From positions 3,647-67,646 of the IMG/VR virus record IMGVR_UViG_3300021060_000007: DNA of 64,000 nt; one strand, 5' to 3'. The notes below the pieces were generated by a model. That model did no database searches and had not been told where the DNA came from. It saw only the letters and a program-made list of their open reading frames with translations. The first letter of the stretch is position 1; every line of letters begins with the position of its first letter. Origin of the DNA: a virus. Lineage: Duplodnaviria > Caudoviricetes. The position numbers and the translations under genes were made by a program. This document shows, one piece after another, positions 27,855 through 44,266 of this stretch.

Positions 27855-28441
27855 TGGCGAACACCTCCGCGACGGGTGGCGCGCTGCTGCCCTTGTCCGG
27901 GGCGGTGCCCGCCGATCTCGAGTTCGACGTCGTCCTCGGGCGCCTCGTGCGCGACATCACGGGCTTGGCGCCCGGCATGGTGCGCCCGCGCTGGCAAGAA
28001 AAGCCGCCCCAGGCGCCGCCGAAGGACACGAACTGGTGCGCCATCGGCGTGATGCGCACGACGGCCGACGGCGGGTCCCGCGCCTCCATCATCCACAACC
28101 CGGAGGGCGAGGGGACCGACACCCTCCGGCGCTACGAGATGCTTGAGGTGATGGCCTCGTTCTACGGGCCGGGTGCCGGGGGCCTCGCCGCGCTCCTCCG
28201 TGACGGCCTCGCTCTCCCGCAGAACCGCGAGCCCTTGTTCTTCGCCCACGCCGCCCTCGTCGACGTTGGGCCGAACATCAACGCCCCGTCCCTCGTCAAC
28301 ACGACCTTCCAGCGCCGCCAGGACATCACGTTCCGCATCCGGCGCCGCATCGACCGCACCTACGCCGTTCGCAACCTCGTCGAGGCCGAAGGCGCCTTCC
28401 GCACCGAACCCCACGACCAGACTTGGTCCACGGAGAACTAG
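27854..28441 (+). CDS. Tail terminator/neck protein
   Basis: VRPRWQ..PP..P...NWCAIG, ASFYGP, R.DIT...RR. Confidence 0.8.
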
Positions 28442-28445
28442 GCCC

Positions 28446-29924
28446 ATGGCATCCGGTCTTCCCGTCAGCGACGTGGTCAACGTCAGCGTCAGCATCTCGC
28501 CGGTCGCGGCGCCCACGCGCAACTTCGGTGCGGCGCTCATCGTGGGCCCCAGCGCGGTCATCGACACGGTGGAGCGCATCCGCGCCTATCCGAACCTCGC
28601 CGGGGTGACGGGCGACTTCCCGACCAACTCGCCGGAGTACCAGGCTGCGGCCCGCCACTTCGGCCAGTCGCCGCAGCCCAACATCGTCTACATCGGCCGC
28701 TTCGCCCAGACCGACACCGCCGGCTCGCTGCGCGGTGGCGTGCTGACGAGCTTCGAGCGGCTGATCACCAATTTCACGGCCATCACCGCTGGGTCGATGA
28801 AGATCAGCGTCGATGGCAGCGAGAAGACGCTGACGGCCCTGAACTTCTCCGGCGCGACCAACCTCAATGGGGTGGCCGCCATCATTGATACCGCGCTCAC
28901 CGGCGCCACAGTGGTGTGGAACGCCAACATCGGCCGGTTCGAGGTGACGAGCGGGTCCACGGGCGCATCCTCGACGCTGTCGTATGCCAGCCCGACCGGA
29001 TCCGGCACCGACATCTCCGGCCTGCTGAAGCTGACCTCCGCCACCGCCTCGGCGCCCGTCGGCGGCATCGTCGCCGAGACGCTGGTCCAGGCGCTCGCCG
29101 CCCTCGCGGACCGGTCCGGTGACTGGTACGCCGCGATCCTCGCCGCCACGGGCGTGCAGAACTCCGACACGCTCGCCGCGGCCGCCTTCATCGAGGCCCA
29201 GGGCAAGAAGCGCATCTTCGGTCTGACGCTCAACGACACCAGCGTGATCGACCCCACCTCGACCACGGACCTCGGCTCGCTGCTGAAGACGGCCAACCTG
29301 CGCCGGACCTTCTCGCAGTACGCCAGCGTCAGCCCCTACGCCGTCGCCTCGTTCTTCGGCCGGGCCGCGACCATCAACTTCCAGGGCTCAAACACGACCC
29401 TCACCATGAAATTCAAGCAGGAGCCCGGCGTCGTCGCCGAGACCCTGACCGAGACCCAGGCCCGGACCCTGAAGGCGAAGGGCGTCAACGTCTTCGTGAA
29501 CTACGACAACGCCACGGCCATCCTCCAGGAAGGCACGATGGCCGACGGGTCGTTCTTCGACGAGGTCCAGGGTCTCGACTGGCTGGAGAACGACATCCAG
29601 ACCGCCCTCTACAACACGCTGTTGACCCAGCCGAAGGTCTCCCAGACCGACGCGGGCATGCACCTCCTCAAGACCGTGATCGAGGGGCGCCTGACCCAGG
29701 CCGTGACCAACGGCCTCGTCGCGCCCGGCATCTGGAACGCGGGCGGCTTCGGCGCCCTGAAGACCGGCGACGCCCTCGATACCGGGTTCTACGTCTACTG
29801 CATGCCGGTCGCGCTGCAGTCCCAGGCGGACCGCGAGGCCCGCAAGTCGGTTCCCATGCAGGTCGCCGTGAAGCTCGCCGGTGCGGTCCATTCCGTGGAC
29901 GTCCTGATCTCCGTCAATCGCTAA
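28446..29924 (+). CDS. Tail sheath protein (DUF3383)
   Basis: [49 protein letters not shown]. Confidence 0.9.
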
Positions 29925-29938
29925 TCGAGGTCTGATCG

Positions 29939-30403
29939 ATGTCCGACAACGGCACTTACGGCTCCTATTCGTTCGCGGACTTCCAGGCCGCCATCGACGC
30001 CCCCAACGGCACGTTCTCGCTCTCCGAGGGCGGCATCGCCGACGAGGGCATCACCATCGCCATGCGCGACCCGAAAAACACGATGGTGTCGGGCGCAGAC
30101 GGCTCGGTGATGCACTCCCTACGCGTCGCCAGCACCGGTACCATCACCATCCGCGTCCAGAAGACCGGCGTGCTCAACGCACTGCTGATGGACCTCTACA
30201 ACTTCCAAACCACGTCTTCGGCCTTCCACGGTCGCAACGTGATCAGCGCGAGCAACCCGGTGGCCGGCGACAGCTTCACGGCCCGCGCCTGCGCTTTCCA
30301 GAAGCTCCCGGACAACGTGAACGCCACCGAGGGCGGGATGCAGGAATGGGTCTTCGACTGCGGGCACATCTCGCAGAAGCTCGGGACGGGTCTTGCGTTC
30401 TAA
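29939..30403 (+). CDS. Tail tube protein (DUF3277-like)
   Basis: YSF.D..A.I, EGITI, GADG.VMHS, EW.FDC. Confidence 0.9.
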   Translation: MSDNGTYGSYSFADFQAAIDAPNGTFSLSEGGIADEGITIAMRDPKNTMVSGADGSVMHSLRVASTGTITIRVQKTGVLNALLMDLYNFQTTSSAFHGRNVISASNPVAGDSFTARACAFQKLPDNVNATEGGMQEWVFDCGHISQKLGTGLAF

Positions 30404-30412
30404 GGTCCGCGG

Positions 30413-30730
30413 GTGATGGCAGATGAGGCCGTTACGGCGCTCGACGTCCTGACGGCCTTCGCGCCGCTCGCCGACGACCTTGCTCCGCATATCGCGCGCA
30501 TCCGCTCCAGGCTTGCCGAGATCCAACCGCTCCCCGACGTGGACGGCCACGACCTCGCCGACTGCATGGCGCTGCGCGCGGACGGCGAGGCGATTTCGGC
30601 CATGGCCGGCATTGAGGGGCTGAGCTTCGTGATCGCCACCGTCGACGACACCGCAGGCGACCGGGCCGGGTGGTCAGCCGCGCTGCTTCAGCGGTCCTGG
30701 TCCGACCTTCCGGGATGGGGAACTCGATGA
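30413..30730 (+). CDS. Hypothetical protein
   Basis: 105-aa ORF in tail operon. Confidence 0.55.
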   Translation: MMADEAVTALDVLTAFAPLADDLAPHIARIRSRLAEIQPLPDVDGHDLADCMALRADGEAISAMAGIEGLSFVIATVDDTAGDRAGWSAALLQRSWSDLPGWGTR

Positions 30731-31386
30731 CCGACAAGGCCATCAACAGCGCGCTGCTCCAGCGCCAGATCAGGATCACGCACAGCTTCAAGCTCGGCGG
30801 CCATGACTATGAGTGCCATGGCTTGCTGCCCCTCGAACAGGTCCATCTCGCTCGGCGCTTGGCACCCCTGGTCCTCGGCGCCCTGAAGCCCGAGAGCGGC
30901 CGTGCCGTCATCCTGCAACGCCTGAGCAAGGTGGCCGGCATCGGCGCGGCGAAGGATGCCGATCCGATTTCACAGGCTGAACTGGCCGAGGCGTCGATGG
31001 AGCTCGCCACGGGCATCCTTGAGGCCGCGTCGTCCATCGACGAGGAAACGGTCAACGACATCATCCGCAAGGTGATGAAGAAGGTCTGGCGCGCAGATGA
31101 GACCGGCGCGAAACGGCAGGTCTGGTGGGACAAGCTGGACCAGCCGACCTTCCCCGACATCGACGGGTTCATGACTCTCGCCATCGTGGGTCAGTACCTC
31201 GTGGGCGAGTTCAAGGATCGCATTGCCGAATATGTCGCCTCCTTGAAGCTGCGCGCCGGCCCTGCCTTCGCTACGGCCATGAGCCAGACGCCCGCCGCGG
31301 CCCCGGCCGACGGCCCAACGATCTGGGAGAACGGTCGTCGCGTGCCGGTGCCGCCCGATGTGATGGCAGCGGCCGGGAGAGGCTAG
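30727..31386 (+). CDS. Tail assembly chaperone paralog 1
   Basis: F..GG.DY...L...EQ.HLARRLAP.V resembles the chaperone at 32687. Confidence 0.65.
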   Translation: MTDKAINSALLQRQIRITHSFKLGGHDYECHGLLPLEQVHLARRLAPLVLGALKPESGRAVILQRLSKVAGIGAAKDADPISQAELAEASMELATGILEAASSIDEETVNDIIRKVMKKVWRADETGAKRQVWWDKLDQPTFPDIDGFMTLAIVGQYLVGEFKDRIAEYVASLKLRAGPAFATAMSQTPAAAPADGPTIWENGRRVPVPPDVMAAAGRG

Positions 31387-31388
31387 GA

Positions 31389-32687
31389 ATGGCCGGCGAT
31401 CTCTACGGTGGTCCCGGGTCGGCAGAAGCCGCTTCGGCCGCCTTCGGCAACGGCCAGACGATGGAGGATGTGGCTCGCGCTGTGATCGAGGCCGAGCGGG
31501 CGCAGATCCACACGAGCGTGCCCGTGAAGGTGGTCACGGACAGCGACGGCAAGACGGTTCGGTTGCAGCCCACAGTGAAGGTGCCGCGCCGGAAGGACGA
31601 CGGCACGATGGAGTACGTTCAGCTCCCCGAAATCGAAGCCATCGTGCACCAGGCTGGCGGCGGCGACACGGCGCTCACGCTCCCAATTAAGACCGGCAAC
31701 GAGGGGTTCGTATCGTTCGGCATGGCGGCCTTCGATGCTTGGCGAGAGTCGGGTGGCGTGCAACAGGCCGTTTCCACCCGCACCCATCAGCTCTCCGATG
31801 GCATGTTCGTGCCCGGCATCAGGTCGAAGCCTCGGGACATCCCCGACATCAACACCGAGGCAGCCGAGGCCCGGTCGGACGACGGCAAGCATCGGACCAT
31901 CACTCACCCAACGAACGGGGTGAAGGTCACCGTCAACGGCGGCAAACAGGTCTTCGACGTCAACGCCAAGACGGGGCAGGTCGAGATCGTATCCAAGACC
32001 GTCACCCTGGCGGCCGGCGACGCGAAGGCCGGGCGTGGGCCTAATACCGAGAACACGACCGACCGGCATCTGAACGAAGCGTTGAAGGGCCTCAGCGCGC
32101 GCGTCGGTCAGGTGGAGAAGACCGCACATGCCCTATTCGACGTCACATCGAAGTTGCGCGAGCTGACGCAAATCCGGGTGCCCGAGGTCGCGGCGCTGTC
32201 CGGTCTCCTAAACCAGAACCCCGGCGGCCTCGACGCCATCGTGGGTGCGATTGAGGGCAAGGCGCAGGCTTACGCTCAGACGCAGATCCAGCAGGCGCTG
32301 GGCATGTTCCTCAACCCTTCCATCGGCGGTCTCGGATCGGTCCTTTCCGGCGGCATCGAGGCGCTGATTGCGGGCCTGGAGGCGCAGATCGCGAAGCTGA
32401 TCGAGATGAACCCGATCCTCGCGCGGGTCGATGACCTGCAGCGCCAAGCCGAAGCCATCCTCGCCCGCGGCGCCCGGCCGGATGTCCAGGCGGCACAACT
32501 CAAGCCGGTGCAAGACGCCCTGGCCGTCATCGCGCAGGGCAACCCCGCTGTGGCGGTTCTCCAGGGACTACAGGACCGCTTGAAGGGGCTGATGGGGCAG
32601 GCCGGGCCCGGCATCAGCTTTCTCGAGCCGCAGAAGCAGATTGCGCAGGGCGTCATCAAATCCATGCGCTTGTCGGAGGGAACCTGA
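31389..32687 (+). CDS. Baseplate spike paralog 1 (gp138/gp45-like N-terminus, long helical C-terminal extension)
   Basis: IHTSVPVKV, LQPTVK, PIK.G.EG, DAW..SGG.Q...R.H.LSDG.F.PG.RS. Confidence 0.8.
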   Translation: MAGDLYGGPGSAEAASAAFGNGQTMEDVARAVIEAERAQIHTSVPVKVVTDSDGKTVRLQPTVKVPRRKDDGTMEYVQLPEIEAIVHQAGGGDTALTLPIKTGNEGFVSFGMAAFDAWRESGGVQQAVSTRTHQLSDGMFVPGIRSKPRDIPDINTEAAEARSDDGKHRTITHPTNGVKVTVNGGKQVFDVNAKTGQVEIVSKTVTLAAGDAKAGRGPNTENTTDRHLNEALKGLSARVGQVEKTAHALFDVTSKLRELTQIRVPEVAALSGLLNQNPGGLDAIVGAIEGKAQAYAQTQIQQALGMFLNPSIGGLGSVLSGGIEALIAGLEAQIAKLIEMNPILARVDDLQRQAEAILARGARPDVQAAQLKPVQDALAVIAQGNPAVAVLQGLQDRLKGLMGQAGPGISFLEPQKQIAQGVIKSMRLSEGT

Positions 32688-33166
32688 TGCCGCCGGACAC
32701 GCAGCCTGTTCGTTTCACCATTGGCGAGGACGAGTTCCGGCACCGGCTGCTAAACGCGAAGGATGAGTTCCACTGCGCTCGGCGAGTCGCCCCCCTGGTC
32801 AAAGGCGCAGGGCTCTTCGTCACGGCCCTGGCGACGGGGAAGAGTGAAGAAGGCGATGATCTTGGCTCGCTCGCCTCCTTCACCGAGGGCGCTGCGCCGC
32901 TGCTGAAGGCCCTGTCCGCCCTGACGGACGACGATGCCGACTTCGTCATGACGAAATGCCTGAGCGTGACGGAGGCGCGGGACGGAGAGGCCTGGGCGCC
33001 GACGTGGGACCCTGCCGGGCGGACGGTCGCCCTACCGCAGTTGCGGATGAACCACATCCTGCAAATCTGCTACCAAGTCCTGCGCGAGGCCATCACGGTT
33101 TTTTTTTCACAAGCTCAATCCAGTTTGACCGAACTCGGGCTTCTGGCTCCGACTACAGCCCGGTGA
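32687..33166 (+). CDS. Tail assembly chaperone (G-type), with -1 frameshift extension to 33357
   Basis: LNAKDEFHCARRVAP, D.DFVM.KCLS; T9 slippery run at 33099-33107. Confidence 0.8.
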   Translation: MPPDTQPVRFTIGEDEFRHRLLNAKDEFHCARRVAPLVKGAGLFVTALATGKSEEGDDLGSLASFTEGAAPLLKALSALTDDDADFVMTKCLSVTEARDGEAWAPTWDPAGRTVALPQLRMNHILQICYQVLREAITVFFSQAQSSLTELGLLAPTTAR

Positions 33167-33357
33167 GGCTGCCGGACAACGAAGACTGGCTGATGCGCCC
33201 CGCGCTCGCCGACCCGCCGCTGTGTACCTACGAGGCCCTTGTCAATGGGACGCTGCGCCTCGCGGACGTCGCCAAGCTGAACGACGCCCTCTCGGCCCGC
33301 GAAGAGAACAGGGCCCGCGCGCAGAGGGCCGCCGAGGCCAACAGGAAAAGGGGCTGA
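33163..33357 (+). CDS. Post-frameshift tail chaperone segment (GT-type C-terminus)
   Basis: LPDNEDWLMRP....C.YE.L.NGTL.L.DVA.LNDAL, in the -1 frame relative to the upstream chaperone. Confidence 0.7.
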   Translation: MRLPDNEDWLMRPALADPPLCTYEALVNGTLRLADVAKLNDALSAREENRARAQRAAEANRKRG

Positions 33358-33360
33358 GCG

Positions 33361-34284
33361 TTGGCTGTCCAGTTCATCCGCGTCTGCCGGCTCACCTCCG
33401 GCGGAAACACGTGGAACCTCGACGATGCCGCGGTCGAATTTCTGGTGCGCCAGAAGACGGTCCAGATGCCGAACATCGCCGAGATCCGCGTCTACAACCT
33501 GACGGAAGACAGCCGGACCAAGCTCTGCAAGCAGAACCAGGAGATCATCCTGGAGGCGGGATACAGGGGGCGCTACAGCGCGATCTTCAAGGGGACCATC
33601 AAGCAGGGCAACCGCGGGAAGGTCAAAGGAACCGACACCTTCGTGGACCTGTTCTGCGGCGACGGGGATCAGGCCTACATCCGAGCCCAGGTGAGCAAGA
33701 CGCTGCCGGCCGGATCGACGCGCCAACAGGTCGTGGACGAGTGCCTGAAGGCGTTCGGCCCCTACGGGGTGTCGAAGGGCTTCATGTCGTCGAAGCTCGC
33801 CGGCTTCACCTTTCCGCGCCCTGTGACCCTGTTCGGCCTCGCGCGAGAGCAGATGCGCACCATCGCCAGGGACATCGGCGCGGACTGGTCGTTCCAATCG
33901 GGGCAGCTCGACGTCCTGCACAAGACCGAGGCCAAGCCCGGGGGGGAATACGTTCTGAACTCCCGCACGGGACTGATCGGCCGGGCGACGCAGACGTTTA
34001 ACGGGATCATCGTCCGGACGCTGCTCAATAACATCCAATGCGGCGGCGTGATCCGTCTGGATGAGAAGTCGATTGATCTCGCCGCACCCGACTCGACGTT
34101 CGGCTACGAGACGCCCAACAACGCGAAGCTCCCCAGCATCGCCACGGACGGACGCTACAAGGTCTATGGGATTGACCGCGTCGGCGTGATGCGCGGTCAG
34201 GACTGGTACAACATTTTGTACTGCGCTGCGGCCAACACCGATCAAAGCTATTTGCCGCGCGCGCTGCTGAACTATCAACAATAG
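33361..34284 (+). CDS. Baseplate hub paralog 1
   Basis: ILEAGY, IFKG.IKQ, PRPVTLFG.AR, LNSRTGLIG, ATDG.YKV, G..WY..L.C. Confidence 0.85.
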   Translation: MAVQFIRVCRLTSGGNTWNLDDAAVEFLVRQKTVQMPNIAEIRVYNLTEDSRTKLCKQNQEIILEAGYRGRYSAIFKGTIKQGNRGKVKGTDTFVDLFCGDGDQAYIRAQVSKTLPAGSTRQQVVDECLKAFGPYGVSKGFMSSKLAGFTFPRPVTLFGLAREQMRTIARDIGADWSFQSGQLDVLHKTEAKPGGEYVLNSRTGLIGRATQTFNGIIVRTLLNNIQCGGVIRLDEKSIDLAAPDSTFGYETPNNAKLPSIATDGRYKVYGIDRVGVMRGQDWYNILYCAAANTDQSYLPRALLNYQQ

Positions 34285-34299
34285 CCCCGGACCCGAATC

Positions 34300-36897
34300 A
34301 TGAGCGATACGATCCGGGAGTTTCTCATTGCGATCGGCTTCGCCGCCGATGAGGGCTCGCGGCGTAAGGCGGAAGATGCGCAGGCCGGGTTCGAGCGCAC
34401 CGTCACCACGTCCGACAAGCGCACGACGAAGGCGCAACTTCGTGAAGCGCTAATCCGCGGCACGACCGAGGCTAAGAGCTTCGGCGACCGGGTCCGGTAC
34501 GCGGAGAAGCTGGAGGAAATCGACAAGCGGTTCGGTGGGCTCGCCCTTCGTCGCACGCTCAGGCAGGCGGCGAAGCATGCGGAGACCGATGAGGATCGCA
34601 TCAAGTGGCTGACGCGGCTCCGCAAGGCCGAGGAAGAGCACCACCAGCGCAGCGCTGCCGGTCTGACCCGAATTGCGAGCGTGGCCGTCGGCGCCGCTCT
34701 GGCCGTGCAGGGGGCTGCCTTGGCCTTCGCCGGGTACGCGACGCAGGTGGCCGCGAAGCTCGAGGCAATGGCATACGCGTCGGATCGAACGAAGTCCTCC
34801 GTCGCGGACCTCAAGGTATTCTCGCAGGCGGTATCGCAACTCGGCGGCACGGCCGGCGGGGCGCTGAACGACCTGGAGAGCTTCGCCGAACGGCTGCGGT
34901 CCAACCCGCAGGGGTACACCGCTTTCCTGAAGAGCGTCGGCGTCGAAGCCCGGGACGCCAAAGGCAACATCCGCGGCGCGGCCGACCTCTACAAGGAGTT
35001 CCGAAAGAACGTCGGGGCCTCCAAGCCCTACGAGCAGCAGCTGCTCTACGCCCAGGAGATGGGCATCTCCGAGCAGACTTGGCGCGCCACCGACCCGGCG
35101 AAACTCGCCGCGGAAGAGGCGGCAGAGCGCGCGAAGCACGCCCGGATGGGCTTCAATCCCGACGCGGCGAAAGAGGACGCCAAGGGCCTGCAACACGCCT
35201 TCCGCGATATGTGGGATTCGATCTCCATTGTCGGGGAGAAGGCGGCGTCCAAGATCTTCGCGGACGTGGGCGGGAACCTGAAATCGTTCACGACCTTCGT
35301 GGAGCAGCACGGCGACCAGATCGCCGAGATCCTGTCGAAGGTCGCACAGATCGTGCTGGCGGTATCTCGGGCATTCCTTGAGCTCGCGACCAGCGATCGA
35401 GTGAAATCGTTCCTCGACGGGGTGCTCAACACCTTCGGGAAGGTGGACGACGCCACGGGCAAGTGGACTGCCAACACCGAGGGAATCAAGAATGCCCTAG
35501 AGGCCCTGGCGATCTTCGTGGCGACCGTGTTCGTCGCCAAGATCACCGGCGCGTTCGCCAGCATTCTGAAGGATCTGAAACCGCTCCTCTTCCTTCTGTC
35601 GCCATTCCTCGGCGCTCTGGGGTTGCCCGCGCTGGGCGCCCTGGGAATCACAGGGGCTCTGGTGGCGGGGTCGGACCCGAGCAAGGGCGTCGTGCATGGC
35701 GGCCGCCCCGACATCAATGGCAACGATCTCGGCTTGCCTGGCGTGGATGCCAACGGGAACGGAAGCTTGGGGCCGCGGAAGGCGCCGGGCGACACGCGCA
35801 GTTGGTATGAGCGAATCGCTCCCAAGTTCCTCGGGGGGAAGGATGCTCCGTCCGGGGCCGGTGGCGGGCGCGAAGATGATGGGGGCTCCGCTCCACGTGG
35901 TGACGGCACCGGCACTCGCGGGGCCGCGCCGGTCGGCAAGATGATGGCCTACGCAATGGATCAGCTTCGCAGGGAGGGCGTGCCCGAGAAGCAGCTTCGG
36001 CAATCAGCGGCACATCTCGTTGGCCAGGCCACGATGGAGTCTGGACTTGATCCCAACAAGGTTCACGACAGCGGAACCGGCTACGGCATCTATGGCGCTC
36101 GCGATCCCAAGGGATGGGGTGACTACAAAGGCGCGCGACGCAGTCAGATGGTGAAGTGGCTCGAAAAGAACGGATACGCCCGCAATTCAGCCGAAGGCCA
36201 GATGCGTTATATGGCGCACGAGGCCATGTCGGGCGGGTACGGCACGACAAAGCGCATTCTGATGGGCGAGGGGTCTGGCAACATCACCGCCGACACCAAC
36301 GCAATCACGCGCGAGTTTGAGGCGCCCGCGATCATCAATCACCGGGCAGGCGCCGTCGAGCGAGCCTTGCGCATTGGTCCAGAACAGGCGGCGCCGGCAA
36401 GCCTGGACGAAAAGCCCTCGGCCGGACTGTTGCCGAACGGGGCACCTGCTGTGCTGAAGCCTAAATCCATGCCAGATGCGCCGGGCGTGGTTATGGATCT
36501 AGATACGAGCGCATCCAAGCCCGCTCCTGAAGCATCTACGCCCCCCGCCTCGCCTGAACCCACTCAGCGAGCGCCCGACAACAAGATGACCGATCAGGCG
36601 CGGGACGCGATCGCTCGTTTCAACGACGCGTTGAAGACGCTGGACACCGGCAAGCTGCGCACGTTCGGAGAGGCGACGCAGGGATTCGATCCCGGCAAGT
36701 TCTTCGTGGCGCCCCCCGTCGGCACTGAGGGGGCGACGAACAACTCCTCGGTGAAGCATCAGACCTTCAACGGTGGAACGACGAACATCACCCAAAACGT
36801 TGCGGGCGGCGCCGACGAGGGCGCGGCAGTGTTCCGGCGGCACAAGGAAAGGCAGAACGCCGACGACGTCCGCTACGCGTCCAGCATGTTCGCTTGA
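34300..36897 (+). CDS. Tape measure protein with a phage tail lysozyme domain
   Basis: DTIREFLIAIGF N-terminus, long helical region, AAHLVGQATMESGLDP...GYGIYG...QMRYMAHE. Confidence 0.9.
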   Translation: MSDTIREFLIAIGFAADEGSRRKAEDAQAGFERTVTTSDKRTTKAQLREALIRGTTEAKSFGDRVRYAEKLEEIDKRFGGLALRRTLRQAAKHAETDEDRIKWLTRLRKAEEEHHQRSAAGLTRIASVAVGAALAVQGAALAFAGYATQVAAKLEAMAYASDRTKSSVADLKVFSQAVSQLGGTAGGALNDLESFAERLRSNPQGYTAFLKSVGVEARDAKGNIRGAADLYKEFRKNVGASKPYEQQLLYAQEMGISEQTWRATDPAKLAAEEAAERAKHARMGFNPDAAKEDAKGLQHAFRDMWDSISIVGEKAASKIFADVGGNLKSFTTFVEQHGDQIAEILSKVAQIVLAVSRAFLELATSDRVKSFLDGVLNTFGKVDDATGKWTANTEGIKNALEALAIFVATVFVAKITGAFASILKDLKPLLFLLSPFLGALGLPALGALGITGALVAGSDPSKGVVHGGRPDINGNDLGLPGVDANGNGSLGPRKAPGDTRSWYERIAPKFLGGKDAPSGAGGGREDDGGSAPRGDGTGTRGAAPVGKMMAYAMDQLRREGVPEKQLRQSAAHLVGQATMESGLDPNKVHDSGTGYGIYGARDPKGWGDYKGARRSQMVKWLEKNGYARNSAEGQMRYMAHEAMSGGYGTTKRILMGEGSGNITADTNAITREFEAPAIINHRAGAVERALRIGPEQAAPASLDEKPSAGLLPNGAPAVLKPKSMPDAPGVVMDLDTSASKPAPEASTPPASPEPTQRAPDNKMTDQARDAIARFNDALKTLDTGKLRTFGEATQGFDPGKFFVAPPVGTEGATNNSSVKHQTFNGGTTNITQNVAGGADEGAAVFRRHKERQNADDVRYASSMFA

Positions 36898-36900
36898 CGC

Positions 36901-37359
36901 TCAGTTTAACTTCTCGACGTTCTCGAACGATGGGCACATCACGCGAAAAATGGCGATCGCCTGATTATTGTCGTCGCCGCACATAGGCGTGACGGGGAAT
37001 GAGTAGGCGTTCGACCATTTGCCGCCGGCCGTGCTGAGTTTGCCCGTTTTGCAGTTGGCTTCAGCGGTGATCGGGCCAGAGGCTGCCGCCTCCCGCAGGA
37101 ACCCGTCGGCGCAGGCCGAGATGGCGGATGGCTTGGGTGAGCTTTTGCCCTCAGCTCTGCCAAGCGAGTAGTAGCAGTACGAAATCGCGTCTGGACGACT
37201 GTGTTGAGCGGTGACGCGAGCTCGGCTCGTATCAATCCCCTCAATAGCGGTGATGGTTGCCGAAGCACCCCGGCAGGTGCCGGCGTACTCAAGGGCCTGG
37301 CAGGGAACCGCCGCCAGAGATCCAACGAGAAAATAAGGGGCAATCAGAGTGGTGCGCAT
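36901..37359 (-). CDS. Secreted Cys-rich protein (moron)
   Basis: Signal-peptide-like N-terminus ending near VPCQA; 6 further Cys; antisense within the late operon. Confidence 0.7.
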   Translation of the reverse strand: MRTTLIAPYFLVGSLAAVPCQALEYAGTCRGASATITAIEGIDTSRARVTAQHSRPDAISYCYYSLGRAEGKSSPKPSAISACADGFLREAAASGPITAEANCKTGKLSTAGGKWSNAYSFPVTPMCGDDNNQAIAIFRVMCPSFENVEKLN

Positions 37360-37439
37360 GGATCGCAAGATAGGCCCCGCGCTTGTTCGCGCAACTGGCA
37401 TCGGCTACCCCAAAGCGAGGGCATGGGGAGCGTTGCAAT

Positions 37440-38732
37440 TTGAAGAATCCATTCCGCCGCCCGGCCAAGGCTCCAGAATTTGAGGAGAACGACCTTTCGG
37501 CCCTCCGAGACCTCCGGTTGGTTGAGCGTATTCCGTCCCCGCGACACCTTCCGCGCTTCTCGTTCGCTCATCTCTCGAAGCAGATCATCGGTATTCCCGA
37601 GGCCAACAGGCGCCTCTTCGGGCAGATTTCCAGGCAGGACGCCCTGCCGGCCGACGCCAGAAGGCTGAAGGTCAGATCCATTGGAGACGGGCATTTTTCC
37701 GCCATGCGGAGGTCGGTGTTTACCTCCGGCCTCGGCGATATACCCGTTGATGTGGTCTGCCTTGAGGATGCGATCGTCACGCCGCGAGGCTTCGTCATTC
37801 ACGGATCGAGCCTAGTTTGGGATGCGCATGCGCTTGGCCCCAACTGGCACGTCGGTGAGGAGTCGCTGTATCTGGTCAACGAACTGGCCGGCAATAATCT
37901 CGGCGGATACGACGCGTTCTGCGGCGAGATCAGCCATTGGAATGCAGAGAGTTACGAGACGCTGGAGGCCCCGGCCTTCCTCTTCAATGCTGGCTTGGCA
38001 ACGGTCAATTTCGCCCACCTGATCCACGACACGATCGCGCAGGTTCCGACTTTCCACGAGTGCACCATTCAGGTGCCCGACCTCGTCCCGTTTATGCCGG
38101 GGGCCGCCCTCGGTCTTCCGATCTCCGAAGAGATCCTGACCCGCACCATGGGGCGCCACGCAGAGCGGCGCGTGTTTGGCCATCATCGCTTCTGGCGGGT
38201 CAAGAAGCTCTACGTGCCGACGCCACTCTTCGACGACACTTCACGGCAAATATCGCGGGGCGCGATGCTGCGGATGCGCTCGCTTCTTGATGTCGCCCTC
38301 GCCGCGCATCCAGCCTCACCCCCTCGGGACCTGTTCATCTCGAGGACGAAATCCAGTCGGGGCCAGCACGAGCCGAGCGCCACGAACTACGGCGCCTTCT
38401 TGGAGCTTCTGGAAAAGCGTGGCTTCACGACAATCGACGCCTCCGAGATCGCCGGACCGGAGTACTTCGACACGTTCCGCGGCGGGCGGATATTCATCGG
38501 CCTTCATGGGGCCGGCCTCCTCAACAGCATGCTAGCGCCTCACGCGAGGCTGATCGAGTTGTCCGTCCCAGGCACGGCGCCTTGGGTGATCGAGCGGTTC
38601 GGTCTGCTCGCGCGCGGCGCTGACATGCCATTCGTGAAGGTGCCACCGAAGACAGTCGACGGCCAATCGCTGGAGCTCGACCTACCCGCCATTGATGCGG
38701 CGATCACCGCGCTTCGCGAAGACACCCCGTAG
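37440..38732 (+). CDS. Glycosyltransferase family 61 (DUF563) protein
   Basis: NFAHLIHD, LFISR, FIGLHGAGLLNSM; probable TTG start at 37440 after GGAG (ORF open from 37383). Confidence 0.85.
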   Translation: MKNPFRRPAKAPEFEENDLSALRDLRLVERIPSPRHLPRFSFAHLSKQIIGIPEANRRLFGQISRQDALPADARRLKVRSIGDGHFSAMRRSVFTSGLGDIPVDVVCLEDAIVTPRGFVIHGSSLVWDAHALGPNWHVGEESLYLVNELAGNNLGGYDAFCGEISHWNAESYETLEAPAFLFNAGLATVNFAHLIHDTIAQVPTFHECTIQVPDLVPFMPGAALGLPISEEILTRTMGRHAERRVFGHHRFWRVKKLYVPTPLFDDTSRQISRGAMLRMRSLLDVALAAHPASPPRDLFISRTKSSRGQHEPSATNYGAFLELLEKRGFTTIDASEIAGPEYFDTFRGGRIFIGLHGAGLLNSMLAPHARLIELSVPGTAPWVIERFGLLARGADMPFVKVPPKTVDGQSLELDLPAIDAAITALREDTP

Positions 38733-38780
38733 AGAGGCCGTCCCAAAGTGATGGGGGCTTCACGATCGAGTGAGACCCCC

Positions 38781-39581
38781 ATGGCAGCCGGACTTATCGG
38801 AGCGGCCGTTGGCCTGATTGGCGACGCGCTCGCGCCCTACGCGCTGATCTCGTCGCCGATGCGGTCCATCGGGACCATCGTCCCCGACGTTGCGATCTCG
38901 GAAGGCCATACGGACGATCTGGCGATCACGGACCATCCGGTTGAGACCGGAGCCGCGATCAGCGACCACGCTTTCAAGATTCCGTCGCGCGTCATCATGC
39001 GATGCGGTTTCTCGAACTCGACGGCCGGGACGGAGGGGTACGTTCAGCAGGTCGTTCAGCTCTTCGACTCGCTTCAGGTCAGTCGCAACCTCATCGACGT
39101 CTACACCGGCAAAAAGTTCTACCGGAACATGCTGGTAGAGCGTCTCGCCCATGAGACGGATGAGGGCACCGAAAACAGCCTCATCCTCATTGTGGGGCTG
39201 CGGCAAGTCCTCCTGACACAGACCCAGTCTCGCAGTGCCCCGAAAGAGGCGCAGGCGATGCCGGAAAAGACCGCGCCCACGACGGACAATGGGTCAACCC
39301 AGATGACGCCGTTGAGCGTGCCGGCGGACAGCTCTTTCGGGCTCTCGACAGCGGGCAACACCTCGTTTCTCGGAGGCGGTACCAGCCTCATCGGCGGCGG
39401 CGACGTTGAGATCGGCGAGATGATCTCGTTCGATCCGGCCAACCCGTCGACCACCTACGTCACGCCAGGCAGCGGGGAATCGTTCTCCGGCCCACTGTTC
39501 GCTCCGGGCGACACCGGCAATACGGCCCTGTTCGGCCGCTACCCCTCGGCGTTTGACGCCAAGGGGTTCAGCCTCTTTTGA
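38781..39581 (+). CDS. Tail tube initiator / Dit-like protein
   Basis: IVPDV.ISE.H.D.L.ITDHPVETGAAISDHAFK.P, TGKK.Y.NML. Confidence 0.85.
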   Translation: MAAGLIGAAVGLIGDALAPYALISSPMRSIGTIVPDVAISEGHTDDLAITDHPVETGAAISDHAFKIPSRVIMRCGFSNSTAGTEGYVQQVVQLFDSLQVSRNLIDVYTGKKFYRNMLVERLAHETDEGTENSLILIVGLRQVLLTQTQSRSAPKEAQAMPEKTAPTTDNGSTQMTPLSVPADSSFGLSTAGNTSFLGGGTSLIGGGDVEIGEMISFDPANPSTTYVTPGSGESFSGPLFAPGDTGNTALFGRYPSAFDAKGFSLF

Positions 39582-39590
39582 GGACGACGC

Positions 39591-40034
39591 ATGGCTTTCC
39601 CGTCGCCCTACGCCCCGACCGCCGACAACACCGCGATCACCGCCGATACGACCCGCTACACCGCGGATGGCGGCATCTTCGTCCCCTGGGCGTTCAACCC
39701 CGCCAGCCTGCGCAACGCCGGTACTACGCTCTACGAAATCCCCATCGCCAACGCGCCCTGCACCCTGAGCGTGGACCTGCCCGGCGGCACCTTCACCTTC
39801 CGGCTCGTCTACGCAGATGCGGAGGAGGGCGGCTGGATCCTCGACATCTCGGACGCGGCCGGCAACCCGCTGGTCTGCGGCATCCCCCTGGTGACGGGCC
39901 TGAACCTCCTGAAGCCCTACGCCTACCTCGGAATCGGTGGGCGCCTGTTCGTGATCGACGTGGCCGATCCGGCCTCGCCCCCAGGCTTCAACGACCTGGG
40001 CACGAACGCCCGGCTGTACTTCGAGGCCGCCTGA
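39591..40034 (+). CDS. Small baseplate protein
   Basis: YEIP, GW.LDI.D..G.PLV.GIPLVTG.NLL..Y.YLG.GG. Confidence 0.8.
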   Translation: MAFPSPYAPTADNTAITADTTRYTADGGIFVPWAFNPASLRNAGTTLYEIPIANAPCTLSVDLPGGTFTFRLVYADAEEGGWILDISDAAGNPLVCGIPLVTGLNLLKPYAYLGIGGRLFVIDVADPASPPGFNDLGTNARLYFEAA

Positions 40035-40990
40035 TGTCGCTGCAGTTCATCCGCCGCGCGAAAATCAATGTGGCCGGCACGGTGATCGAACTGACGGGCG
40101 CGGCCGACGCGAGGGACGACACGGCCTTGCGGGTTCGCTTCAACATCAAGGACTCGACCCTCCAGGCGCCGCGCGTCGCCGAGATCCGCATCACGAACCT
40201 GAGCGACAGCACGTCGAAGAAGCTGCTGGGCCAGAAGGGCAAGACCGTCGAGTTGGACGCCGGCTACCTCGAAGGCATGGGACGAATTTTCAAGGGCGAG
40301 ATCAAACAGGTCCGCATGGGCCGCGAGACGCCGACCGACACCTACCTCGACGTGTTCGCTGCGACCCAGGAGCGGGCCTACAACAACGCCATCGTGAACA
40401 AGACCCTGCCAGCCGGCTCGACGGGGCAGGACATCTACAAGGCCTGCCTCGACGCGATGAAGCCTTTCGGGGTGGCGCAGGGGCAGATCCCCGACGCGCT
40501 CGCCAAGATGAAATACCCGCGCCCCGTGACGCTGTTCGGCATGGCCCGCGACCACCTCCGCACGCTGGCCTACTCGGCCGGCTGCACCTGGAACATCCGC
40601 GACGACAACCTCGACGTGATCCCGAAGGACGGCGCGCGGGATGGCGGGGCCATTGTCCTGAACTCGCGCACCGGGCTGATCGGCCTGCCGGCGCAGACGG
40701 AGCAGGGCATCCTGGCCCGCTGCCTCATCAACACCCGGATCGGCATCAACTCGACGGTCCAGATCGACCAGAAGAGCATCCAGCAGGCCGCGCAGAACCT
40801 CTCCTACGGCGGCGAGCCCTTCAACTCCGAGCCGTACCTGCCCTCGCTGGCAGCCGACGGCCTCTACCGCGTAGTCGGCATGGACCACATCGGCGATACC
40901 CGGGGTCCGCCCTGGTACTGCGAGCTCTACTGCATCGCCAAGAGCGGCGCCGGACCGACCAAGTCGCAGATCTCGATGGGCTGGAACTGA
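40034..40990 (+). CDS. Baseplate hub paralog 2 (canonical position)
   Basis: VELDAGY, IFKGEIKQ, PRPVTLFGMAR, LNSRTGLIG, AADGLYRV, GPPWYCELYC. Confidence 0.85.
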   Translation: MSLQFIRRAKINVAGTVIELTGAADARDDTALRVRFNIKDSTLQAPRVAEIRITNLSDSTSKKLLGQKGKTVELDAGYLEGMGRIFKGEIKQVRMGRETPTDTYLDVFAATQERAYNNAIVNKTLPAGSTGQDIYKACLDAMKPFGVAQGQIPDALAKMKYPRPVTLFGMARDHLRTLAYSAGCTWNIRDDNLDVIPKDGARDGGAIVLNSRTGLIGLPAQTEQGILARCLINTRIGINSTVQIDQKSIQQAAQNLSYGGEPFNSEPYLPSLAADGLYRVVGMDHIGDTRGPPWYCELYCIAKSGAGPTKSQISMGWN

Positions 40991-40992
40991 CG

Positions 40993-41871
40993 ATGGACCT
41001 GCGCGAGCGCATCCTCGAACTCGGCGGCACGGCCGACTTCGAGGAGATCATCCGAGCGGCAATCCAGGCTGAGAACCGCAACACCTACACCATGCTGCCC
41101 GTGACCATCACGAAGGACTCGGACGGCAAAAAGGCCATGCTCCAGCCGACCGTGAAGGCGCAGACGCGCGACGCGGACGGCAACCTGAAGCACGTCGACC
41201 TTCCCGAGGTGGAAGGCATCGTCCACTTCATGGGCGGCGGCGGCATGACGGCGACGTTCCCGATCAAGCAGGGCGGAGAAGGCATGGTCCTGTTCGCCTC
41301 CCGCGCCATCGACGCCTGACACCAGTCCGGTGGCTCGCAGCAGGCCGTGGACACCCGCTCGCACCACCTCTCGGATGGCATCTTCCTCCCCGGCCTGCGC
41401 TCCCAGCCGCGCGACCTGAAGGACATCAACACCGAGGCGGCCGAGACCCGGACCGACGACGGCAAGCACAAGACCTCCGTCCACCCGAAGAACGGCGTGG
41501 CCGTCTCCGTCGAGGGCGGCAAGCACACCATGGCGTGGCACCCGGAGAACGGAATCGCCGCGTCCGTCGATAGCGGCAAGCACACCCTCAACCTGAACCC
41601 CGCCTCCGGCATCTCCATGAAGACCGCGATGAAGCTCGCTGTCGACGCGACGTCCGGCATCGACATGAAGGGTGCGCTGGCCGTGGACGGAAAGGTGACA
41701 TCGACCCTGCCCATCGGCGCCGGCGTGCTGCAGGGCATCCTGCAGGGCGGCATCGGGGCCGTCATCGGCGCGCTGATGACTGGCGCGCTGTTCGCCGCCT
41801 ACGGCGCCCAGGCGCCTCACGAGGGCTACCAGACTGCCCGCTACGCGCTCGCCGCGTTCTGGGGCCGCTGA
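40993..41871 (+). pseudogene. Baseplate spike paralog 2, interrupted by an in-frame TGA at 41317-41319 (pseudogene, readthrough, or sequence error)
   Basis: RAIDA*HQSGGSQQAVDTRSHHLSDG aligns with paralog 1 AAFDAWRESGGVQQAVSTRTHQLSDG; the frame continues to 41871. Confidence 0.75.
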
Positions 41872-42221
41872 TGCGAGTCCGCAAGGTCGACGAGAACGGC
41901 GACATGCAGTTCGGCCGCAACCAAGCCGACTACCACCGGGACAGCCCCGAGGGCGTCGCCCAGATCGCGCAGTCTCGCCTGCAGCTCTACCGCGGCGAGT
42001 GGTTCCGGGACACGACCGATGGCACTCCGTGGCGCACGGAGGTGCTGGGCAAGTACACCGGGCCAACCCGCGACCTCGTCATTCGCTCGCGCATCCTCGG
42101 CACCCCGGGGCTGACCAGCATCGACGCCTACGCGAGCCAGCTGAACCGCGACACCCGCGCGTTCGCGGCCCAGGTGACGATCTCCACGCAGTACGGCCCC
42201 ATCAGCTTTCAGGCGTCCTGA
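41871..42221 (+). CDS. Baseplate wedge initiator (gp46/gpW-like)
   Basis: MRVRKVDENGD..FG, RL.L..GEWF.DT..GTPW. Confidence 0.85.
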   Translation: MRVRKVDENGDMQFGRNQADYHRDSPEGVAQIAQSRLQLYRGEWFRDTTDGTPWRTEVLGKYTGPTRDLVIRSRILGTPGLTSIDAYASQLNRDTRAFAAQVTISTQYGPISFQAS

Positions 42222-42224
42222 CCG

Positions 42225-43415
42225 ATGGCATCCACTCCCCTCGTCACCATTGACGCGACCGGCATCCACATGCCGGCGGAGGCCGATGTGCAGGCGTTCT
42301 TCCAGGCGGCGTTCCGAGGCATCTACGGGCAGGACGTCTACCTCGGAAACGACTGCCAGGACGGGCAGTGGGTGCAGCTCATCGCCAGCGCCTTTCACGA
42401 TGCGAACGCGGTGGCCGTGTCGGTCTACAACTCGTTCTCCCCCGCGGGCGCGCAGGGCGTCGGCCTCGACCGCATCGTGAAGATCAACGGGCTCACCCGA
42501 TCGGGCGCGACCCGGTCCAGCGTCGATCTGCGCCTCATCGGCCAAGCCGGCGCGACGATCACGGGCGGCATCGCGGCCGACGGGGCCGGGACGCAGTGGG
42601 TGCTCCCCGCCCTCGTCACCTTCCCGCTTGCCGGCGAAATCACGGTGACGGCGACAGCCGCCGACCTCGGCGCCATCGCGGCGGCGGCGGGCACCATCAC
42701 CAGCATCGCAACCCCAACCTTCGGCTGGCAGAGCGTGACGAACCCCGCAGCGGCCACCCCCGGCCTGCCGGTGGAGAGCGACGCGGCCCTGCGTCAGCGC
42801 CAGACTCTCTCGACCACGCTCGCCGCGCGGACGCTCCTCGAGGGCGTCGCCGGCACCATCGCCGCGATGGAGGGCGTCGCCCGCTTCCGGGTCTACGAGA
42901 ACGACCTAGACCAGACGGACGACAATGGCCTGCCGGGCCACAGCATCGCCTTTGTCGTCGACGGCGGCGACGCCCAGATGATCGCGGCGCTGATCGCGGC
43001 CCGGAAGGGGCCCGGCGTCTCGACCTACGGCACGACGAAGGTCACCACCGGCGACCGGCTCGGCATCGCCCGCGCCATCGCGTTCTCCCGCCCCGTGGCG
43101 GTCCCCGTGGCCTACGGCGTCAGCCTCAAGGCGCTGAAGGGCTACAACCTCGAGGTCCAGGCCAAGATCGCCCAGGCGCTCACGGACTGGACCGTCGGCC
43201 TCGGGATCGGCGGTGGGCAGGACGGCGCGCTGCTGCTGACCCGGGCGTATGGGCCGGCCCTGCTGCGGGGCGACCCGGCCGAGCGCACCTTCGAGATCCT
43301 GTCCTTATCGGTGGGGCTCGATGGGCAACCCCTCGGGTCGGCCGACTTTCCGTTCCGCTTCGACGAGGCGCCGACCTGTGACCCGGCCTCCATCTTCTTC
43401 ACGGTGACGCAGTGA
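42225..43415 (+). CDS. Baseplate J-like wedge protein
   Basis: IYGQDVYL..D.QDGQ, GVGLDRIV..NG..R, VESDAALRQR, HSI..VVDGG. Confidence 0.9.
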   Translation: MASTPLVTIDATGIHMPAEADVQAFFQAAFRGIYGQDVYLGNDCQDGQWVQLIASAFHDANAVAVSVYNSFSPAGAQGVGLDRIVKINGLTRSGATRSSVDLRLIGQAGATITGGIAADGAGTQWVLPALVTFPLAGEITVTATAADLGAIAAAAGTITSIATPTFGWQSVTNPAAATPGLPVESDAALRQRQTLSTTLAARTLLEGVAGTIAAMEGVARFRVYENDLDQTDDNGLPGHSIAFVVDGGDAQMIAALIAARKGPGVSTYGTTKVTTGDRLGIARAIAFSRPVAVPVAYGVSLKALKGYNLEVQAKIAQALTDWTVGLGIGGGQDGALLLTRAYGPALLRGDPAERTFEILSLSVGLDGQPLGSADFPFRFDEAPTCDPASIFFTVTQ

Positions 43416-44266
43416 GCGAGCCCGGCGACCAGTACGTCGCCCTCATCACGAGCTGGCATCGCGGGAAAGCGCGGTTCACCGAGACGGTCCGCGCGTCCGT
43501 CAGCCCCGTCGCCGAGGCGCAGAGGGCCATCGCGGGCGTCGGCCCGGCTTTCGACCTCGACAGCGCCATCGGCGTGCAGCTCGACACTCTCGGTGGCTAC
43601 ATCGGCCGCACGCGCGAGATCTCCTACCCGGTCCGGGGCAACTACTTTGCCCTGGACGATCCCGACCGCGGCCTCGACGTTGGCGTCTGGCGCGGGCCGT
43701 TCGACACGATCATCGGCGCCTTCACCCTGGAGGATGAACGCTACCGCCGGCTTCTCAAGGCCAAGGCCATCGCCAACCGCCAGGACGGCACGCTGGCTGG
43801 CGCGCAGGACGTGCTGGACGCATACTTCACCGATCCAGACACGCGGGTGGTGATCGAGGACCGGACCGAGGCCCACACGCCGGAGACGTTCTTCGCCTTC
43901 GACATCGACGGTCGGGGCTTCGACGCCGCGCTGATCGAACCGCACATCTTCGCGTTCGACACCCCAGGCCGCGGCCTCGACCAGTCCCGCTGGATCGGTC
44001 CGAACGAGATCGACGCCAGTCGGACCTCTCTGGATATGGAGATCACCGTCACGGTGTCGGGCAAGATGCCGGACGCCATCGACCTTGCCATCCTCGCCAA
44101 CCGCCTCCTGCCGATCAAGCCGGCCGGCGTTCAGATGGAGACGATGGTCACCTCGACCGATGACGCCCCGCTGTTCGGCTTCGACCTCAACGGCGAATCC
44201 GTCGGCGGCTTCGACCGCGGCGCCTTCGGGGTGACCCCGCAGTACCTCCAGGGCGCGTCCGTCTAG
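43412..44266 (+). CDS. Baseplate wedge protein (DUF2612)
   Basis: Y..LITS.H..K.RF, FDLDSA.GVQLD.LG, D..YR.LLKAK..N, P.KPAGV. Confidence 0.85.
   Translation: MSEPGDQYVALITSWHRGKARFTETVRASVSPVAEAQRAIAGVGPAFDLDSAIGVQLDTLGGYIGRTREISYPVRGNYFALDDPDRGLDVGVWRGPFDTIIGAFTLEDERYRRLLKAKAIANRQDGTLAGAQDVLDAYFTDPDTRVVIEDRTEAHTPETFFAFDIDGRGFDAALIEPHIFAFDTPGRGLDQSRWIGPNEIDASRTSLDMEITVTVSGKMPDAIDLAILANRLLPIKPAGVQMETMVTSTDDAPLFGFDLNGESVGGFDRGAFGVTPQYLQGASV

Follow-up and report, generated by a model that had tools for sequence, protein, structure and literature searches.

How does a phage come to carry two tail tips? Tail assembly starts with the baseplate hub, spike, and tape measure proteins, which also open the path for DNA to enter; all three are normally encoded in single copy and are thought to be tightly coadapted. 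The virus record IMGVR_UViG_3300021060_000007, of which we analyzed a window of 64 kb out of 67.6 kb (CheckV completeness, 97%) and which we take to be a temperate, integrated phage, has one hub and spike pair (set 1, hub1 and spike1) upstream of its tape measure gene and another (set 2, hub2 and spike2) downstream. With moderate confidence, we regard the region as a mosaic tail operon formed by replacement of one part, rather than as a designed two-tip system, with set 2 left redundant. Judged by their homology limits and gene content, the extra hub, spike, and chaperone genes are shown to have come with a foreign tape measure gene as one cassette.

Limits and content of the tail cassette

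The closest complete relative of the phage is G005, a complete 69.8-kb genome with terminal repeats that carries one hub gene only, of the hub2 type, and an intact spike gene. The gene order in its lineage is tube, chaperone, tape measure, variable genes, Dit, plug, hub, spike, and wedge. In a blastn comparison, the window and G005 share 92% nucleotide identity over positions 28312 to 30405, covering the sheath and tube genes; homology stops at the tube stop codon, resumes at 38779 (the Dit start), and runs on to 47824. These limits mark the segment from 30406 to 38778 as exchanged relative to G005, which has in this slot a different chaperone (28% identity) and a different 964-amino-acid tape measure (31% identity), followed by unrelated genes. 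Homology to the provirus fragment L006 begins at the ATG of orf105 and ends at the tape measure stop codon. The junctions are stop and start codons, with a 9-bp spacer and no repeat, and the 6.5-kb foreign cassette (30413 to 36897) that would have replaced the resident chaperone and tape measure segment at these gene boundaries contains orf105, spike1, hub1, a tape measure gene with a lysozyme-type domain, and two tail assembly chaperone (TAC) genes, TACa and TACb, the latter with a -1 extension. The features of the region are listed below; dN/dS is the ratio of nonsynonymous to synonymous substitution rates.

28446 to 29924, plus strand: tail sheath, ATG at 28446; resident backbone (the G005 sheath has 492 amino acids)
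29939 to 30403, plus strand: tail tube, 99% amino acid identity to the G005 tube; resident backbone
30413 to 30730, plus strand: orf105, first cassette gene; 81% identical to the L006 ortholog, dN/dS 0.18
30727 to 31386, plus strand: TACa, second, divergent tail assembly chaperone; PF21822 at 30.6 bits (cutoff, 22) with partial profile coverage; phrog_1688
31389 to 32687, plus strand: spike1, with a phi92 gp138-type N-terminal domain; PF18352 at 59.7 bits (cutoff, 26.1)
32687 to 33166, plus strand: TACb, G-type tail assembly chaperone; PF21822, E 9e-15; phrog_1688, E 1.7e-19
33100 to 33357, plus strand: slippery T TTT TTT (33100 to 33106) and -1 extension with DUF6889, predicted to give a GT-type product
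33361 to 34284, plus strand: hub1, cassette baseplate hub, TTG start; phrog_196, E 1e-54
34300 to 36897, plus strand: cassette tape measure, 865 amino acids, last cassette gene; lysozyme-type domain PF18013 at residues 567 to 677
36901 to 37359, minus strand: small opposite-strand gene with a signal-peptide-like N terminus, as judged by eye; variable slot
37383 to 38732, plus strand: GT61 glycosyltransferase; PF04577, E 2.5e-11; variable slot between tape measure and Dit
38781 to 39581, plus strand: Dit-like protein; PF21821, E 6.5e-26; resident backbone
39591 to 40034, plus strand: plug, Pam3 gp18 type; PF22479, E 2.9e-21; 93 to 95% identity to G005, L027, and L029; resident
40034 to 40990, plus strand: hub2, resident baseplate hub, intact; PF22759 at 44 bits (cutoff, 27); phrog_196, E 1.8e-64
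40993 to 41871, plus strand: spike2, resident spike, interrupted by TGA at 41317 to 41319 (codon 109)
41871 to 43415, plus strand: baseplate wedge genes, W-like (41871 to 42221) and J (42225 to 43415), 89 to 99% identity to relatives; resident

The two hubs are 43% identical over 302 amino acids (E 4e-80), and the preliminary description of this locus was right that they align along their whole length, with every motif it quoted present. It was also right that the spikes are similar at their N termini and unrelated at their C termini; ~185 residues are common to both (from residue 19 to ~190 of spike1), beyond which spike1 continues for ~230 amino acids with a high content of Ala, Leu, Gly, and Gln, and the end of spike2 is hydrophobic. 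Both cassette proteins match solved structures: hub1 matches Pam3 gp19 (7yfz_t, E 1.3e-20) and phi92 gp137 (E 3e-13), and spike1 matches phi92 gp138 (3pqi, E 1.4e-7) and Pam3 gp20 (7yfz_w, E 1e-6). Hub1 scores 17.4 bits against PF22759, under the cutoff of 27, and is still 43% identical to full-length hub2.

In a maximum likelihood tree of 31 hubs, hub1 groups with nine sequences from capsidless elements (support, 100/99) and hub2 with the G005 lineage (100/99). Their closest relatives, L006 for hub1 (88%) and L027 for hub2 (94%), are not each other. Such separate, well-supported clades identify hub1 and hub2, on phylogenetic grounds, as xenologs joined by recombination rather than duplicates, and the view that the two sets are paralogs duplicated in this genome has to be given up.

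The double set is also without parallel in the collections that we surveyed. Contractile phages proved to be single-hub as a rule, as previously stated: among 539 phage records with a hub homolog, the only one with two hits is a concatemer. This record, from Erwinia phage LS-2018a, was considered as a second two-hub phage and rejected, the hits being identical and offset by 31.8 kb; the entry (L057, CP013974.1, 59.8 kb) is a concatemer or permuted overassembly of a genome of ~32 kb. In the host family of Methylobacterium, 21 of 401 sampled genomes have a hub homolog and three have two, the copies lying on separate contigs or over 1 Mb from each other, and in the host order the hub is found in 2 of 401. 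Thus neither the 539 phage records nor the 802 sampled genomes hold another single tail cluster with two hubs, and scans of virus contig collections revealed no other hub1-clade contig that also bears a hub2-type gene. G005 has set 2 only, and all other hub1-clade loci have set 1 only. A megablast search with window positions 28000 to 44000 against isolated phages gave no match.

Within the cassette the genes are tightly coupled, in one operon orientation with stop/start overlaps or gaps of at most 15 bases, and the TTG start of hub1 is preceded by a purine-rich AGGAAAAGGGG run, a putative ribosome-binding site. The frame -1 to TACb is an open reading frame (32956 to 33357) that carries DUF6889 (PF21829, E 4e-14), the slip site lies in a T9 run read in the TACb frame, and the pairing of TACb with a -1 DUF6889 frame is seen in all related loci. 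By its chaperone domain, slippery heptamer, and -1 reading frame upstream of the tape measure, TACb fits a frameshifted chaperone of the G/GT type. It resembles the lambda G/GT pair in its T TTT TTT slip site and -1 extension ahead of the tape measure, and differs in that a hub gene lies between chaperone and tape measure and that an upstream TACa is present without a recognizable frameshift partner. TACa orthologs are present in all of the type-B blocks. The extra set had been described as interleaved with two chaperone paralogs; both proteins do match PF21822 above the cutoff, although their mutual similarity is weak (E 6e-5 over 32 amino acids). TACa was also considered as a fused G-T chaperone, and this was rejected, its C terminus being without similarity to the DUF6889 extension. 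Searches of Pfam and PHROG with orf105 gave no match.

Capsidless elements that carry the hub1 block

Where might such a cassette come from? Hub1-type proteins are rare, forming ~15 clusters at 58 to 88% identity among 5.8 billion proteins searched, followed by a gap down to 43%. Every recovered hub1-type locus bears one conserved block, in which the Methylobacterium-type order is TACa, Dit, plug, spike, a protein of 245 to 281 amino acids, TACb with DUF6889, hub, and tape measure. The block is conserved in L005 to L008, L054, and L058 to L060, with tape measure, chaperone, and hub together, and in each case it adjoins divergently transcribed replication genes coding for a Toprim primase with a DUF3987, DUF927, or D5_N/DUF5906 helicase, or for DnaB.

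Two of the carriers, both Methylobacterium contigs, are complete elements: G003:C28 (35,480 bp, loci L021 and L022) and G004:C97 (35,019 bp, loci L023 and L024); the remaining hub1-clade loci are partial proviruses and metagenome contigs. In one of the two, the ends overlap exactly over 141 bp, the length of the assembler k-mer; the other has a 118-bp terminal repeat with one mismatch, and for this reason both are probably circular. A scan of the whole of G003:C28 against PHROGs and Pfam found ParA, DUF932, an integrase, a BrnT toxin, a Topo VI-like protein, Rap1a, a Toprim primase, and a DUF3987 helicase, and no terminase, portal, capsid, sheath, or tube. For G004:C97, a partial Pfam scan found the Toprim primase and DUF3987 helicase, and tblastx found no structural gene in common with the window outside the block. 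Across the elements, what is shared with the window by tblastx is the tail-core block plus, depending on the element, one small gene at about 58 kb or, in L006, a DnaB with a distant match. The G003 and G004 genomes as wholes have no match to the window J protein and, in a search with a stricter first look, none to the window sheath; the G004 genome (Methylobacterium sp. J-076) has no Baseplate_J family match, and no resident helper of this phage lineage was found in either genome. We treat the ~35-kb contigs as candidate satellites that bring their own tail core. The earlier proposal that the extra set builds on a shared sheath and tube fits the probable working of these home elements, given that they lack genes for sheath, tube, and capsid; it would apply to them rather than to this phage.

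The relative closest to the cassette is L006, at 88% identity for hub1 (dN/dS 0.12) and 81% for spike1 (dN/dS 0.20), and the cassette genes as a whole are under purifying selection in this comparison (dN/dS 0.12 to 0.32). The cassette tape measure is 60 to 69% identical to type-B tape measures over the N-terminal 350 to 490 amino acids, compared with 31% to that of G005. Its hydrolase domain differs as well, being Phage_lysozyme2 in the window (34300 to 36897) and Peptidase_M15_4 in G005 (L050:4646-7540, minus strand); as read from these domain matches, the cassette swap also changed the cell wall hydrolase domain of the tape measure.

L006 has the order Dit, plug, orf105, TACa, spike1, TACb, hub1, and tape measure (L006:7763-15614), a circular permutation of that in the window. 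It joins hub1 and spike1 with a Dit (72%) and a plug (87%) of the phage-lineage type and has no second hub, and so this combination exists on its own. L006 is itself mosaic, combining this phage-type Dit and plug with an element-type hub, TACb, and tape measure. The N-terminal domain of the L006 spike is 55% identical to the phage-lineage spike, whereas Methylobacterium spikes are 37 to 42% identical to either. This mosaicism points to repeated exchange between hub1-type elements and this phage lineage.

With respect to the architecture of spike1, we note that this protein (432 amino acids; 439 in L006) corresponds in extent to two neighboring genes of the Methylobacterium block, coding for a 221-amino-acid spike and a 279-amino-acid protein rich in Ala, Leu, Gly, and Gln (L008:7808-9312). 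Similarity of the spike1 C terminus to the separate protein is weak and composition-like (E 0.005 over 27 amino acids), and it is plausible that spike1 is a fusion of the two.

Tail cores encoded by satellites have a precedent in the Vibrio cholerae PLEs, of which PLE11, PLE1, and PLE4 form chimeric tails with phage ICP1 (PMC12987554). PLEs encode a tape measure, a chaperone, and a hub ~41% identical to that of the helper (the value for PLE11), and their virions exclude the helper tape measure and hub while taking the tube, the sheath, and the rest of the baseplate from the phage (PMC12987554). Otherwise, hardly any tape measures have been reported from satellites (PMC12822802). The elements and cassette described here are PLE-like in combining a diverged hub with a tape measure and chaperone (hub1 and hub2 share 43%, close to the PLE value), and in that the relatives of the cassette are capsidless, as is G003:C28 with its integrase, ParA, and primase/helicase. 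They differ in that the block is larger, with two chaperones, Dit, plug, spike, hub, and tape measure, and that its carriers include two fully sequenced, plasmid-like Methylobacterium elements of ~35 kb. The window itself is no capsidless satellite, having head, sheath, tube, and wedge genes, and its block lies in cis within a complete phage beside a resident hub and spike, an arrangement not described for PLEs.

From these comparisons we suggest, tentatively, that the hub1/spike1 cassette belongs, as tail-core module, to an undescribed alphaproteobacterial family of phage satellites, plasmid-like or integrative elements of ~35 kb that build helper-based chimeric tails, and that the phage represents the helper lineage, with the module captured in cis. 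If this were true, capture in cis could protect the phage from satellites that interfere with its own tape measure, its original hub and spike would be dispensable, and the record would be a natural snapshot of tail-core replacement.

The resident set and explanations for the double set

How the replacement may have played out can be sketched from the gene order. In the home elements, hub and spike genes are encoded beside the tape measure gene, so that a recombinant phage receiving the cassette would have two sets of different ancestry. Hub1, spike1, the cassette tape measure, and their chaperones are presumably coadapted and would form a tail core on the resident Dit and plug, around which the resident wedge, tube, and sheath would assemble to give a chimeric tail encoded in cis. 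Such a core on resident parts is suggested by the constant linkage of hub and tape measure in the home elements, by the pairing of hub1 and spike1 with phage-type Dit and plug in L006, where there is no other hub, and, by analogy, by PLE virions, which hold the satellite tape measure and hub in place of those of the phage. Hub2 and spike2 would be left redundant, with hub2 either an intact leftover or still in use, and a TGG-to-TGA change in spike2 would be tolerated because of this redundancy.

Such a change is present, and the two sets are not both complete as had been thought. The TGA at 41317 to 41319 lies inside the N-terminal domain of spike2 and replaces a conserved tryptophan, coded by TGG in L027, L028, and L029 and present in spike1 too. 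No other lesion was seen between sheath and wedge among the tail genes, whose lengths match those in relatives. After the TGA, which is followed by a C, the frame stays open and homologous for 183 codons. The preceding codon (window 41314 to 41319 for the two) also differs from all three relatives, by a synonymous GCT-to-GCC change, and two adjacent third-position changes thus sit at the lesion.

Three virus contigs, one of them G005, encode close relatives of hub2, spike2, W, and J at 79 to 99% identity; hub2 is 79 to 94% identical to its relatives with dN/dS of 0.08 to 0.26, and across hub2, spike2, plug, W, and J the values are 0.06 to 0.26. For spike2, changes unique to the window number 13 nonsynonymous and 20 synonymous, compared with 5 and 33 when the three relatives are pooled (Fisher P = 0.015). 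Relaxed selection across the gene was considered as the cause and rejected, since changes of both types cluster in codons 227 to 289, a divergent tract. The spike2 nonsense codon is probably an isolated, recent lesion.

Several points weigh against the replacement that we favor. Hub2 shows no relaxed constraint, its window-unique changes being 6 nonsynonymous and 13 synonymous. Spike2 has only two unique nonsynonymous changes outside the divergent C-terminal tract, which implies a lesion that is recent, leaky, or an error of sequencing, and the TGA is known from a single record. Which hub and spike the virion uses is something we infer from sequence. L006 itself is not the donor, given a synonymous divergence (dS) of 0.5 to 1.2, and transfer could have run from phage to elements, a direction countered only by distribution, with at least nine elements set against one phage.

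A different account of the same lesion is that the prophage is decaying. The recombinant would be defective, the nonsense codon in spike2 would be the first step of decay, and the cassette proteins would be unable to replace the resident set. Prophages commonly decay, and a stop codon in a gene essential to relatives, together with a double set unique to this record, is what decay could leave behind. We nevertheless consider it unlikely, as decay would have to be reconciled with a single lesion from sheath to wedge in genes of the same length as in relatives, with an estimated completeness of 97%, with intact cassette genes whose dN/dS is that of purifying selection, and with the fact that hub1 and spike1 stand alone beside a phage-type Dit and plug in L006.

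The reading first proposed, that the phage maintains two alternative tips and uses both sets to make tails of two kinds, is in our judgment decidedly unlikely. For spike2 to function, either the TGA is a sequencing error or the UGA-C is read through as tryptophan at a low level, which could suffice for a spike needed at three copies per virion. UGA-C is a weak termination context in Escherichia coli, and the base after the TGA, the 183 open and homologous codons beyond it, an intact hub2 with no excess of nonsynonymous change, and the placement of both sets in one tightly coupled operon are all compatible with two working tips. Three relatives, however, have TGG at this site, and the check proposed for this reading, a conserved double set in relatives, found none; the set is unique to the record and spike2 bears a stop codon, the sequence half of what had been named in advance as contrary evidence. 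No other record keeps both sets, the survey of phage records and genomes yielded no second two-hub tail cluster, and the resident tape measure, the expected partner of set 2, is gone.

Errors of assembly are a general concern with a record taken from a public collection of assembled contigs, and Dit and plug genes are common to the phage lineage and L006-type elements, offering a place where two elements from one sample might be joined. A join through the common Dit and plug would, however, yield another gene order, and the cassette lies in operon orientation between junctions at stop and start codons with a 9-bp spacer and no repeat, so that a chimera is very improbable. Tandem duplication of hub and spike within the genome with later divergence would explain the homology of both pairs (hubs over their full length, spikes at the N termini) and is hardly credible, being contradicted by the hub tree, in which each hub has closer relatives elsewhere, and by junctions that fall where homology to each of two separate donors ends.

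Comparison with known tails and neighboring genes

The tail protein families of the window are those of the simple contractile-tail baseplates of Pam3, phi92, E217, and Magia: a Dit-like protein, a gp18-type plug, a gp19/gp137/gp41-type hub, a gp20/gp138-type spike, W, and J. In Burkholderia phage Magia, from whose annotation the W and J wedge genes are named, the order is tube, chaperone with a frameshift form, tape measure, two small proteins, hub, spike, and wedge, and the resident genes of the window are arranged as in Magia and G005. Whereas in these phages a single hub and spike lie downstream of the tape measure, the window adds a second pair upstream, with a second chaperone. The breakpoints, exactly at the tube stop, the orf105 start, the tape measure stop, and the Dit start, are those of ordinary phage mosaicism. 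Ordinary mosaicism differs from this case in that the incoming module is from capsidless elements and adds extra copies of essential, single-copy baseplate parts.

Exchange of modules among phages and tail cores encoded by satellites are both known already; what is new is their combination, a full inner-baseplate and tape measure cassette common to capsidless elements and a complete phage, which gives the phage two hub and spike sets, one freshly disabled. Hub, spike, and tape measure can thus move as one cassette with their chaperones between capsidless elements and a complete phage, and the record catches the old and new sets in coexistence, with the old spike just hit. To our knowledge, PLEs are the only satellites so far experimentally shown to build chimeric tails; the conserved element family in Methylobacterium and its relatives has a fuller tail-core set than the Vibrio PLEs. 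If the elements behave like PLEs, chimeric tail assembly would be widespread, and it could be tested in the cultivable M. guangdongense SI9 and Methylobacterium sp. J-076.

The start of the Dit gene, at the downstream edge of the exchanged segment, was placed at ATG 38781 rather than at 38748, the same ATG being present in G005 and L027. The slot between tape measure and Dit is variable. In the window it spans 36901 to 38732, with the small opposite-strand gene and the GT61 gene; L027 (3 to 686) has a GT61 gene 91% identical, directly upstream of Dit, and the G005 slot (L050:197-4645) holds a DUF6414 gene and three unknown genes. Away from the tail region, the phage codes for a DnaB-type helicase (window 12903 to 14153) with a distant relationship to the DnaB encoded next to the L006 tail-core block (39 to 64% identity over local segments); this helicase gene is the sole window gene besides the tail-core genes matched by L006 in tblastx.

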